From the NCBI RefSeq assembly GCF_054482595.1, contig NZ_CM137008.1: a stretch of DNA of 64,000 nucleotides. One strand, written 5' to 3'. A program made the translations under genes and the position numbers. This document shows positions 1-64,000 of the stretch, in pieces. The stretch's first letter is position 1; each line of letters starts with the position of its first letter. The notes below the pieces were generated by a model. The model was given only the letters and a program-made list of their open reading frames with translations. It was not told the DNA's origin and did not search any database.

Positions 1-320
1 TACTGGAACAGACGGCCCAGGCTTACATTGAATCGCATGGTGCCATTGAACGTCATCTTGGGTGTAGTGACTTTTAACGTCAGGTGATGCATAAGGGCCT
101 TTCGCTGAGAGGCCCTGTTTACACAATTAAATAAATCGAGCCCGACCAACAATTTTGATGTTAACAGCAGGATTATTGAGGGGCAATCAATGTGTTCTTC
201 GGTAGCGATTACGGTAGTGAACGGACCTGCTGTCTGAATGGCATCGATCCGCAAGCGTATCGGCGCCATATTCTGAGCGTACTACTGAAATGGCTAATGG
301 CAGTAAAGAGAGACTTTACG
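1..320 (+). mobile_element. IS66-family element remnant: degraded 3' end of tnpC plus right terminus
   Basis: Translation of about 230-300 gives GIDPQAYRRHILSVL, resembling the IS66 TnpC C-terminal motif; upstream frames are broken; a terminal sequence similar to the other IS66 ends in the window lies near 314-322. Boundaries approximate. Confidence 0.5.
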
Positions 321-407
321 TATATTTGCATAAAGCAGGATTTTACGACTAGTCAACATTCTTTATAATTCTTCAGGTTCAGAGTATCTGACATATAGGG
401 TTATGTA

Positions 408-1124
408 TTGGGGAGACATTTAATGTTTGGCCATCTGTTACGATACTTTAGTTTCTGTAAAAAAGATTTATTAGTATTTCATCCTGAATCTGATTACTCA
501 GATAATTTACATAAAGCCTTCTCTTTTACAAAAAGGCTAGGATTTAATGAAGAATGGAATGGGGTCACAAAAAACAAAGAATATGATTATCAGGATGTCT
601 TCAGTCATGTCTGTCTGCAGTCTGGTGTGACAGACTTTTCCGCTTCAGCAGGACAATGCTTAAAGTGGAGTCATTATTTTCAGCCATATTTTGAGAATAT
701 CCTTGAATGTCGGGTATGGGTTACCGTTGGACAACTCTGGAAACAGGAACGATTTATTTACAATCCGTCAGTTGCGGATTTTCAGCGCTGGTCTGAAAAA
801 GGGATTCAGCCTGAAGATTTTAGACATCACTCGGGGTTTAACTTTCATGCGTGGTTGACGACGGAAAATGGTGTGATTGTGGATGTTTCCTTTATGAGTA
901 CGTTATCGCGGCGATTACCTGAACACCTGAGTGAAGTCAGTGGAAGTGTGATTATTGGCACGCCAGAGACGGTTCTTCCTGAGTATAAATATGTTCCCAT
1001 GATTGTCGGTCAGAGGATTGTTGAGAAAATAGAAAAACGCTCTTTCATTGGTTTTCTGGCGCACGACGATATTGATTTATATACAGTACCTGCAATCTTG
1101 GTTCCGGTATGGAAAGAATGTTAA
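408..1124 (+). CDS. hypothetical protein, 238 aa, no domain recognised
   Basis: Intact ORF preceded by an AT-rich region (about 320-407); no similarity to any family I can name; lies between an IS66 remnant and an IS21-like remnant. Confidence 0.4.
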   Translation: MGRHLMFGHLLRYFSFCKKDLLVFHPESDYSDNLHKAFSFTKRLGFNEEWNGVTKNKEYDYQDVFSHVCLQSGVTDFSASAGQCLKWSHYFQPYFENILECRVWVTVGQLWKQERFIYNPSVADFQRWSEKGIQPEDFRHHSGFNFHAWLTTENGVIVDVSFMSTLSRRLPEHLSEVSGSVIIGTPETVLPEYKYVPMIVGQRIVEKIEKRSFIGFLAHDDIDLYTVPAILVPVWKEC

Positions 1125-1443
1125 AGCACGGAATAACACTATGCACTTACCGCTTTCCGGAACTCAGCTTGTTACCTGAGCGGTCAACAGAGCAGTCTTT
1201 CAGTGTCTGCACTTGGTTGCCACTAAACCGGAGTCATTTATCAGAAGTATATGTTCATGGAAGGATATTGTCAGCGCCAGTGATATAAGACGGTAATGAG
1301 GATAGCCATCCCGCATGGGTTTCCTCAACACTGGTCACTGTGACAAGCGCACCATGATCGTCTTTGTATCGCTGATTGACTTTCGATAATAGAACATCTT
1401 CTGACATAAATTTTAGTACGGTAACAATTAACTAAATTTTCAT

Positions 1444-1800
1444 GTGGTAGCACTGAATCAGGAGACTGCGTTTCCTGATGTGTGCTTCTGCAGCCGTTAC
1501 CGGATACAGACTTCGATACCAGTTACTTCGACATCCGCCATGTGTCCTGGGACCCGCTATAACGAAGTTGGAGGTAATCAGTACAGCGTTCCCGAAATGC
1601 TGTGTGGTCAGCCAGTCTCGATACGAATATCGCTGAACGATGAGTTGCGGATCTACAGTAATGAGAAACTGGTGGCCTCACATCGCCTCTGCTCAGTGTC
1701 GTCTGGCTAGCAGATAGTACCGGAACCTCACGCCCCGCTCTGGCAGCAGATCAGTCAGGTGGAACATCGACCACTGAGTGCCTATGAGGAGCTGTTGTGA
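1444..1800 (+). pseudogene. IS21-family IstA transposase C-terminal fragment
   Basis: ORF 1444..1710 contains YSVP...RIYSNEKLVASH, typical of the IstA C-terminal region; downstream frame continues to ...RPLSAYEELL; N-terminal part absent. Confidence 0.4.
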
Positions 1801-63048: not shown

Positions 63049-63052
63049 GAAT

Positions 63053-63088
63053 AAAAAAAACGGGTCGCCTTCTGGCGACCCGTTTTTC
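63053..63088. terminator. bidirectional rho-independent terminator between convergent speC and nupG
   Basis: A-run, cgggtcgcc-ttct-ggcgacccg, then T-run. Coordinates approximate. Confidence 0.6.
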
Positions 63089-63097
63089 TTTGCGTAA

Positions 63098-64000
63098 TTA
63101 GTGGCTAACCGTCTGTGTACCTGTCGGGACACGAACGTGTTTATATTTGAACATCGCCATGAACGCGAAGGCCAGAACCACGGAGTAACCAGCGAAAATC
63201 AACCATACGGTCTGCCAGTCGGTAATGCCGTTTTGGGTGTACATCTCAACAACTTTACCGCTCACGATGCCGCCGAGGATACAGCCGAAGCCGTTAGTCA
63301 TCATCAGGAACATCCCTTGTGCACTGGCGCGAATTGCCGGGCTAACTTCTTTTTCGACAAACACCGAACCAGAGATGTTGAAGAAGTCGAATGCGCAACC
63401 GTAAACGATCATCGACAGTACCAGCAGTACAGTACCGAACGGAGTCGGGTCGCCGTAAGCAAACAGCGCAAAACGCAGGATCCACGCCACAATACTGATC
63501 ATCATTACGTTCTTAATACCGTAGCGGCTTAAGAAGAACGGGATGGTCAGAATGAACAGGGTTTCAGAGATCTGCGAAATCGACATGATGATTGACGCAT
63601 GCTGCACAATAAAGCTGCTGGCAAACATCGGATCTTTGTCGAAGCTGTGCAGGAAGGTATTACCGAACATGTTGGTAATCTGCAGTTCCGCGCCCAGCAG
63701 CATTGAGAAGATGAAGAAGATTGCCATACGCTTGTTTTTAAACAGCGCGAATGCATCGAGGCCCAGCAGGGTTGTCCAGCTCTGATTCGCTTGCTGTTTA
63801 GCAACCGGAATATGCGGCAGAGTCAGGGTAAACAGAACCAGAATGGCGGAAAGTGCTGCGCCAATATACAGCTGCATGTGGCTTAATTCGAAGCCAGACA
63901 GGCTCACCACCCACATTGCCATGATAAAGCCGATGGTGCCCCAGATACGGATTGGCGGGAAGTCAGTAACGATATCCATCCCGGCATTTTGCAGGCGATA
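63098..64000 (-). CDS. nupG: nucleoside permease (MFS), 3' portion; gene continues beyond the window end
   Basis: Track ORF 63098..63979 ends ...YKHVRVPTGTQTVSH; the reading frame stays open to the window edge, so the N-terminus is outside the window. Confidence 0.9.
   Translation of the reverse strand, partial: YRLQNAGMDIVTDFPPIRIWGTIGFIMAMWVVSLSGFELSHMQLYIGAALSAILVLFTLTLPHIPVAKQQANQSWTTLLGLDAFALFKNKRMAIFFIFSMLLGAELQITNMFGNTFLHSFDKDPMFASSFIVQHASIIMSISQISETLFILTIPFFLSRYGIKNVMMISIVAWILRFALFAYGDPTPFGTVLLVLSMIVYGCAFDFFNISGSVFVEKEVSPAIRASAQGMFLMMTNGFGCILGGIVSGKVVEMYTQNGITDWQTVWLIFAGYSVVLAFAFMAMFKYKHVRVPTGTQTVSH

Follow-up and report, generated by a model that had tools for sequence, protein, structure and literature searches.

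Genomic islands at tRNA genes of Escherichia coli and Shigella are mosaics of insertion sequences (ISs), phage DNA and plasmid fragments, and this mosaicism is considered their hallmark (PMC7545054). Stepwise assembly has left SHI-2, for example, rich in partial transposases, and 14 transposases lie within the 21.6 kb of PAI tibA (PMC7545054). The leuX island ends in the dihydroxyacetone phosphate (DHAP) shunt, mtnK-mtnA-ald2 (PMC10986504). In long-term evolution lines, target duplications accompanied all 69 simple insertions (69/69) and none of the 14 events that combined an IS with a deletion (0/14); all 14 of the latter involved IS150 and were attributed to adjacent deletions (PMC11708052). 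Here, we describe a 64,000-bp stretch of an E. coli chromosome (contig NZ_CM137008.1 of assembly GCF_054482595.1, hereafter the window) that carries the tRNA-proximal part of an island located at the tRNA-Phe gene pheV. This island is very probably a stepwise mosaic of cargo blocks, in which IS insertion was followed by IS-driven deletion and recombination at the seams between the blocks.

Positions 1–59701 of the window represent the ~60 kb nearest the integrase in a pheV genomic island of about 100 kb, which continues beyond the start of the window, while positions 59702–64000 are chromosomal backbone (yqgA, speC and nupG). As is typical of tRNA-linked islands, the insertion lies at the 3' side of the tRNA and adjoins a tyrosine integrase (Table 1). 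Its composition is not that of the backbone, with a GC content that jumps between blocks from 39% to 56%, and its distribution among strains is patchy. Among 5,426 complete genomes, 17 have 80% or more of window positions 1–25000 and 10 have 80% or more of positions 25001–50000; the full arrangement is found at 99.1–100% identity in these 10–17 genomes, which come from humans, duck, mink and chicken farms. The island of GTEN_97 (~102 kb, extending up to yghD and including a K5 capsule cluster and CP4-57-like genes) matches the window at 99.997% over positions 1–35337 and at 99.958% over positions 36106–59749. The sole structural difference between the two is an IS1 that replaces 564 bp of yjhI in the window.

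This IS1 is complete and has the overlapping frames of its family, insA (35393–35668, 91 amino acids) and insB' (35587–36090, 167 amino acids); the consensus terminal inverted repeat, which we take to be about 23 bp long, begins GGTGATGCTGCCAACTTACTGAT. The 9-bp (or 8-bp) target duplication is absent, the flanks being cgcaaaggg and gaatcaacc, a result that bears on the history of this copy and not on its family identity. In GTEN_97, the same two flanks enclose 564 bp of yjhI (L001 35338–35901), where the gene sequence is intact. None of the 10 other island-bearing genomes has an IS1 at the yjhI site (0/10; all with 97% coverage in at least two pieces). The window thus contains an IS1-linked 564-bp deletion of yjhI that is specific to this strain. 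We propose that IS1 inserted in yjhI and that the adjoining 564 bp were then removed, which would be the most recent event in the island. The deletion likely occurred by intramolecular replicative transposition (adjacent deletion) and less likely by recombination between two IS1 copies; either route would erase the 9-bp duplication. IS-mediated adjacent deletion is classical for IS1.

A second intact element, ISEc16, probably marks an earlier rearrangement. It has the features of the IS3 family: orfA and orfB (99 and 284 amino acids) are linked by a programmed −1 frameshift, the transposase contains an rve DDE domain, and the ends read TG...CA. The Prokaryotic Genome Annotation Pipeline (PGAP) annotates the identical GTEN_97 copy as "ISEc16, programmed frameshift". 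Its boundaries were reproduced by alignment to another IS3-family copy. The 3-bp target duplication is absent, with ACT on one side and CGG on the other, all three bases differing. Homology of the neighboring porin block to a P1-like phage-plasmid runs to the last base before ISEc16, where the plasmid goes on into ssb, and an artificial empty site made by joining the two flanks found no contiguous match in any of the 5,426 genomes. Because the flanks are of different origin (porin/plasmid DNA versus an IS5-family end) and no empty site exists in these genomes, ISEc16 sits on a breakpoint common to all genomes with this part of the island. This breakpoint between the porin block and the IS5-family remnant would be older than the IS1 event and could have formed by adjacent deletion or by recombination between ISs. 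Cargo 95.5% identical to the ompC-like porin block is carried by P1-like phage-plasmids of ~100 kb, with a hypothetical gene on one side and ssb on the other; about 100 plasmids have it.

Comparison with related strains, proposed as a check in the original prediction made from this sequence, revealed that variants of the island elsewhere break at IS positions. In strain 746, backbone pieces 32214–31753 and 16664–16046 are only 266 bp apart, which implies that a CP4-57-like backbone has received 16665–31752 (15.1 kb) as an insertion, one edge of which is a truncated IS66 element (no. 4 in Table 1). Homology to this strain ends at 25648, inside IS66 no. 3, where strain 746 has an intact IS100, and restarts at 58096 at the integrase; ~32 kb of the window is absent from strain 746. 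A second comparison concerns positions 33854–46646 (12.8 kb; sgcE'-sgcR-yjhIHGFU-GRP-ald2-mtnA-mtnK), which are collinear with the leuX island of strain 22270 at 94–96% identity; the homology stops at 46646, in a tnpB fragment. Judged from these alignments, block-level variation at IS positions is real.

IS pieces were found at eight seams. IS21, ISEc38 and IS100 sequences separate the backbone from the cit block, and two IS66 pieces lie where the cit block returns to backbone. IS66 no. 3 lies between the malX and dcuC blocks, IS66 no. 4 between the dcuC block and the backbone, and an IS66 left end between the backbone and a ulaA' fragment. The tnpB fragment lies between the DHAP shunt and the porin block, ISEc16 and the IS5-family end between the porin and pepT blocks, and two IS3-family ends between pepT and nhaC. 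The 15.1-kb insertion contains uxaA', agaR, malX, malY, a gene for an unnamed 629-residue protein, IS66 no. 3, an amidohydrolase gene, dcuC, lysR and IS66 no. 4. The IS66 elements were also considered as active capturers of cargo, an idea that we rejected as the informative edge (31752/31753) falls inside tnpC and not at an IS66 end.

To identify IS remnants, stretches without an intact gene were translated in six frames and scanned with Pfam, chosen fragments were compared with NCBIfam, and junction DNA was compared with annotated E. coli genomes and plasmids, with fetched reference copies aligned. The four shortest remnants (the first IS66 piece, the IS629-like end, the IS5 end and the IS100 end) were invisible to the six-frame Pfam scan, and three of these fragments, searched singly, gave no NCBIfam match either, so that DNA comparison with annotated genomes was needed. 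In total, 16 IS-derived segments of seven families were identified: IS66 (six), IS21 (IS21 and IS100), ISL3, IS1, IS3 (three), IS200/IS605 and IS5. Together they cover 9,558 bp (16%) of the 59.7-kb island portion, and only ISEc38, IS1 and ISEc16 are intact. Insertion sequences make up about 1% of E. coli K-12, and the density in the window is also higher than in the distal 43 kb of the GTEN_97 island, which has four transposase-type features.

Each of the IS pieces listed in the original prediction exists, as confirmed by profile and DNA matches, and the absence of target duplications at IS1 and the IS3-family element was correctly observed. The interpretation of their non-matching flanks as products of adjacent deletion or recombination is also supported, by the 564-bp loss from yjhI and by the unrelated DNA on the two sides of ISEc16, and it agrees with the long-term evolution lines (PMC11708052). 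Some of the coordinates needed revision. A piece placed at 1–320 shrinks to ~180–302 (positions 1–77 belong to the 3' end of a YagK/YfjJ gene and not to IS66), that at 14763–15770 consists of two nested IS66 pieces and a non-IS gene fragment, and the IS66 element at 30050–31801 is real but occupies 30013–31752, with an AlpA-type gene fragment next to it. The IS21 left tip, the IS100 left end, the IS5-family right end and an IS911-like orfA fragment had been overlooked. The density of ISs, described as exceptional, is high compared to the backbone but usual among such islands (PMC7545054).

The IS inventory, the absent duplications, the loss of 564 bp, the mismatched flanks and the breaks at IS positions in other strains are direct observations; how transposition acted, and in which order the earlier events came, is inferred, as follows. 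Unrelated cargo blocks would have accreted stepwise onto a CP4-57/P4-like integrative backbone; these include citrate lyase/acnB, malX-malY, dcuC with an amidohydrolase, and KpLE2-type sgc-yjh with the DHAP shunt, as well as a phage-plasmid porin, pepT and nhaC. ISs would have landed within and between the blocks and nested in each other, later becoming substrates for deletion and recombination, so that most of the IS pieces now at the seams would be truncated leftovers. The intact IS1, ISEc16 and ISEc38 are likely later arrivals, with ISEc38 lodged inside an IS100 shell, as it is in every sampled copy.

Several observations weigh against this history as a complete account. No IS is present at 16664/16665, at the aldolase fragments (18963–19301), at the ulaA'/sgcE' fusion (~33853), between yjhU and the DHAP shunt (41992–42033) or between an ept pseudogene and the integrase. 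The yjhU/DHAP-shunt pair is, on the present alignment, no seam at all, since 33854–46646 is contiguous in the leuX island of strain 22270. The IS-free seams imply that IS-independent illegitimate recombination also shaped the island. In addition, the intermediate in which IS1 sits in yjhI with a 9-bp duplication was not found, and the route may have had one step or two; the search with joined flanks revealed neither the DNA lost at ISEc16 nor a partner copy for it; and some IS fragments may already have been broken when they arrived with their block. The earlier suggestion of ISs at every module junction is therefore too broad, as several seams carry none, and the related view that serial IS events built and eroded the island holds for the IS1 deletion, the ISEc16 breakpoint and the variant breaks but not for the IS-free seams. 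Nor are the gene linkages uniformly recent, as had been proposed, given the 99.1–100% identity across 10–17 genomes and the 94–96% identity of the 12.8-kb block to the leuX island.

Alternatively, the IS pieces could be passive passengers, either imported in truncated form with their blocks from plasmids or other islands or piled up in insertion-tolerant DNA, so that they mark the seams without having made them. The IS66 left end and ulaA' (32418–33786) form a single unit in the leuX island of strain 22270, and ECOCN22 shares 53079–53602 at 98.7% (query 52686–53602), a match that starts inside the IS629-like left end and implies that this end may travel with the neighboring psiE' fragment. The nesting of ISs (ISEc38 in IS100, an ISCro1-like element in another IS66, ISEc16 beside an IS5 end) also fits a safe-haven pattern. 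However, IS1 shows an IS-linked deletion in situ, variant islands break at IS positions, and passive insertion would not be expected to yield an intact ISEc16 that lacks a duplication and lies between flanks of unlike origin. We therefore consider this explanation unlikely on its own; it complements the IS-driven history and does not exclude it.

It is far less probable that repeats were collapsed or mis-joined during assembly and that IS1 and ISEc16 only seem to have odd flanks, a concern raised in the original prediction. IS1, ISEc16 and ISEc38 are multicopy elements in E. coli, and the IS1 junctions are seen in the window only, i.e. in the present assembly. Nevertheless, at least seven independent complete genomes show the entire arrangement at 99.9–100%, ISEc16 and ISEc38 junctions included, and it is thus not an assembly artifact, strain-specific IS1 junctions apart. 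As for IS1, a random mis-join would not place both flanks in one gene, in the same orientation and 564 bp apart, as they are here. Comparison of the window with itself found no internal repeat at E≤1e-10 that could have collapsed. The IS66 pieces share only matches of ≤91 bp, and IS66 no. 3 and no. 4 have 27–37% amino-acid identity; being different members of the family, they are unlikely to have recombined or collapsed with each other within the window. Least credible, to the point of being negligible, is that duplications were missed through misplaced IS boundaries or later mutation: the 3-bp length of IS3-family duplications makes them fragile evidence, but the canonical IS1 ends lie 768 bp apart and a comparison genome reveals the missing DNA, 39-nt inverted repeats and alignment to an independent copy define the ISEc16 ends, whose flanks differ in sequence and origin, and boundary shifts within 5 bp either way gave no matching flanks.

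The third intact element, ISEc38, has the ISL3 DDE transposase and the terminal inverted repeats of the ISL3 family; the boundaries of the copy were set from thousands of matches. Its transposase is intact (539 amino acids) and matches Pfam DDE_Tnp_ISL3 in two stretches, in addition to Zn_ribbon_ISL3. An 8-bp target duplication was found neither in the window (flanks atgaaagt and tgatttca) nor in any of the 15 copies examined, which comprise the window copy and 14 others from chromosomes and plasmids (~11 distinct contexts; L009, L010, L012–L014 and L016–L024). An IS1-like adjacent deletion was considered for these flanks and dropped, as every other copy had the same IS100-end flanks. In all 15 copies, the ISEc38 core abuts IS100 at position 21, 46, 1900 or 1934. 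Each of these positions adjoins one of four GATC sites (within ~60 bp of the IS100 tips), and the adjoining GATC is missing in 15 of 15 copies. The core is found in both orientations relative to the IS100 ends, and in most sampled copies just 21 bp are left of each end; the right-end 21-mer also flanks ISEc38 in other records. In one record (L016), ISEc38 is simply inserted in an otherwise intact IS100.

The ISL3 DDE transposase of ISEc38 is split by an insert. Residues 301–386 are 34% identical to residues 9–98 of IS100 IstA (E 5e-11), the insert matches the N-terminus of IS21-family proteins (NCBIfam, E 1.6e-16), and Pfam helix-turn-helix domains match there too. ISEc38 might be an ISL3-family IS with a captured IstA-type (IS21-family) DNA-binding domain, by which it homes to the IstA-binding repeats at IS100 ends; we offer this as a tentative proposal whose chances are somewhat below even. 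Two units consisting of ISEc38 and its IS100 shell (1764 bp) are bordered on the outside by perfect 5-bp duplications (GGAGC and GTTGT), and ordinary IS100 insertion likewise gives a 5-bp duplication (CCATA). These IS100-type duplications suggest that such units were mobilized as miniature IS100 elements. No description of ISEc38 homing to IS100 was found in the searchable literature, where papers naming ISEc38 merely list it among mobile elements, and two exact-pattern scans for the ISEc38 end in one-genome-per-species contigs returned nothing useful. Next to the IS100 remnant, positions 3595–3755 (160 bp upstream of a gene for a GntR regulator) are 93.8% identical to an unannotated chromosomal site in E. 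coli H140.

Truncation affects all six IS66 pieces, and in no case are both ends preserved (0/6), so the window has no complete IS66 element with an 8-bp duplication. The tnpA-tnpB-tnpC arrangement with a DDE_Tnp_IS66 domain is present at 24404–26088 and 30013–31752, and the piece at 14954–15594 has tnpC alone. The first piece (180–302) has no Pfam or NCBIfam match; its translation resembles the IS66 transposase C-terminus by eye, and PGAP annotates 192–368 as a partial hypothetical protein. The ISCro1-like fragment matches NCBIfam transpos_IS66 (E 1e-54) over profile positions 220–377 of 387, with DNA matches bounded at query positions 248/255–895. IS66 no. 3 matches Pfam HTH_Tnp_1, TnpB_IS66, LZ_Tnp_IS66, zf-IS66 and DDE_Tnp_IS66, is annotated by PGAP as well, and is 93.4% identical to ISEc23 of strain 22270 over 24404–25671. 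The abutting positions 24143–24403 look by eye like the C-terminus of the 16S rRNA methyltransferase RsmI (a candidate assignment; PGAP, partial hypothetical protein). Copies of IS66 no. 4 at 94% identity are present in other genomes (query 59/66–1801). Among the small IS3-family fragments, the assignment of 53073–53193 to IS629 follows a terminal sequence that we presume to be that of IS629.

Table 1. Positions of the attachment site, integrase, IS-derived segments and neighboring fragments in the window.
Feature	Position	Strand	Basis and remarks
IS66 tnpC 3' remnant (first piece), heavily degraded	180-302	+	DNA 218-294 85-87% to ISEc23/ISEc47 tnpC
IS21 left terminal 29 bp	1269-1297	+	100% to DNA ~100 bp upstream of istA in intact IS21 (L005 2027-2055)
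IS21 istA 3' end and first istB bases	1487-1806	+	92.5% over 320 bp; Pfam Mu-transpos_C_2, E 1.5e-9
IS100 right-end tip, 20 of 21 nt	1807-1826	+	Matches IS100 positions 1954-1937; abuts ISEc38
ISEc38 (ISL3 family), intact, 1722 bp	1827-3548	-	23-nt inverted repeats; NCBIfam transpos_ISL3, E 2e-111
IS100 left-end remnant (IS100 positions 46 to 1)	3549-3594	-	98-100% to IS100 left inverted repeat; BLAST covers 46-5 = 3549-3590
IS66 left-end fragment	14763-~14860	+	Hairpin 14813-14849; aligns with ISEc23-type left ends; short match to left end of IS66 no. 3
ISCro1-like IS66, tnpC 3' half and right end	14954-15594	-	93% to ISCro1-family transposase genes; GTAAGCG tip at 14954
ECs1377-family gene fragment (non-IS)	15589-15909		NCBIfam scan
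IS66 no. 3, ISEc23-like: left end, tnpA, tnpB, frameshifted tnpC 5' part	24404-26088	-	Truncated against rsmI-like gene fragment
IS66 no. 4: tnpA, tnpB, truncated tnpC	30013-31752	+	tnpC cut at profile ~231 of 387; NCBIfam transpos_IS66, E 2e-70; Pfam
AlpA-type gene fragment (non-IS)	31754-31849		Abuts IS66 no. 4
IS66 left end and TnpA N-terminal fragment	32418-32661	+	NCBIfam IS66 TnpA, E 6e-18; 90% to L007 25466-25709; alignment
IS1, complete, 768 bp	35338-36105	+	Canonical ends GGTGATGCTGCC...GGAGTCATTACC; sequence inspected directly
IS200/IS605-type tnpB 3' fragment, frameshifted	46641-47159	+	NCBIfam IS200_TnpB, E 8e-28; Pfam Cas12f1-like_TNB; PGAP
Porin (ompC-like) block	47211-48731	+	Between tnpB fragment and ISEc16; 95.5% to P1-like plasmid pCFS3292-3
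ISEc16 (IS3 family), intact, 1244 bp	48732-49975	-	39-nt inverted repeats; ends TGATC...GATCA; Pfam rve, rve_2, HTH_Tnp_1
IS5-family right-end remnant	49987-50107	+	79% to last 119 bp of a multicopy IS5-family element; abuts ISEc16
IS3-family (IS911/ISEc52-like) orfA fragment	52889-53025	-	72-80% to ISEc52/IS911-type copies
IS3-family left end (IS629-like)	53073-53193	+	Terminal repeat and first 21 orfA codons; 92-95% to 5' ends annotated "IS3 family transposase"
P4-type tyrosine integrase of the island	58163-59428	-	Pfam Arm-DNA-bind_3, Phage_int_M, Phage_integrase
tRNA-Phe (pheV), island attachment site	59626-59701	-	ARAGORN, Rfam; followed by yqgA, speC, nupG

An Rfam scan of the window gave no match except the tRNA. 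The pheV-yqgA-speC order is kept in the window and in strain 4FM, and six more close genomes lose their match to the window at or just before the tRNA (59648–59749). In GTEN_97, the island is flanked on one side by yghD, a pheV-side gene, and on the other by the pheU-side genes tRNA-Phe, dicD, dsbD and cutA (L002 22422–29586; L011 1–7074); these mixed flanks imply an inversion between pheV and pheU around the origin relative to K-12. Strain 4FM (NZ_CM137007.1) and NZ_CM188746.1, whose islands are otherwise identical, span 26,313 bp for window positions 1–25000, which implies one extra insertion of ~1.3 kb that is absent from the window. The gene at 22187–24076, an "enterotoxin" to PGAP in some records, bears the name "alpha-galactosidase" or "hypothetical protein" elsewhere, and its product has no Pfam domain at E≤0.01; given the missing domain and the conflicting names, the toxin label looks unsupported.

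The IS-scarred mosaic is real, and the original prediction read it mostly rightly; it is textbook island biology that is already known, and our findings leave the current understanding of island evolution unaltered. For the interpretation of gene content, neighborhood across IS-marked seams is weak evidence of shared function, and it is reliable within blocks (cit-acnB, malX-malY, sgc-yjh-DHAP shunt, pepT-MFS and nhaC-malY). The island also offers a clean natural case of deletion linked to IS1, for which a near-identical island supplies the undeleted allele. The association of ISEc38 with IS100 is the sole item here that might repay further work.

With SHI-2, PAI tibA and other pheV/pheU islands, the present island shares a tRNA-Phe site, a P4-type integrase, a deviating GC content and a mosaic of IS remnants. 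Unlike those pathogenicity islands, its cargo within the window consists almost wholly of metabolic and transport genes, without a classical toxin, adhesin or siderophore cluster. An intact IS that lacks a duplication and has DNA lost on one side, as found here, resembles the 14 IS150 deletion events (PMC11708052), with the difference that those lines form a time series, whereas the precursor with a duplication is here inferred and not observed. Another close parallel is the DHAP-shunt island at KpLE2/leuX (PMC10986504), with which 33854–46646 is collinear. The block in the window differs from its leuX counterpart in the loss of sgcXBCQA, in its fusion to a ulaA-like fragment and in the IS1 within yjhI; the DHAP shunt is a known resident of leuX islands, and here it has been relocated, with its block, into a phe-tRNA island.

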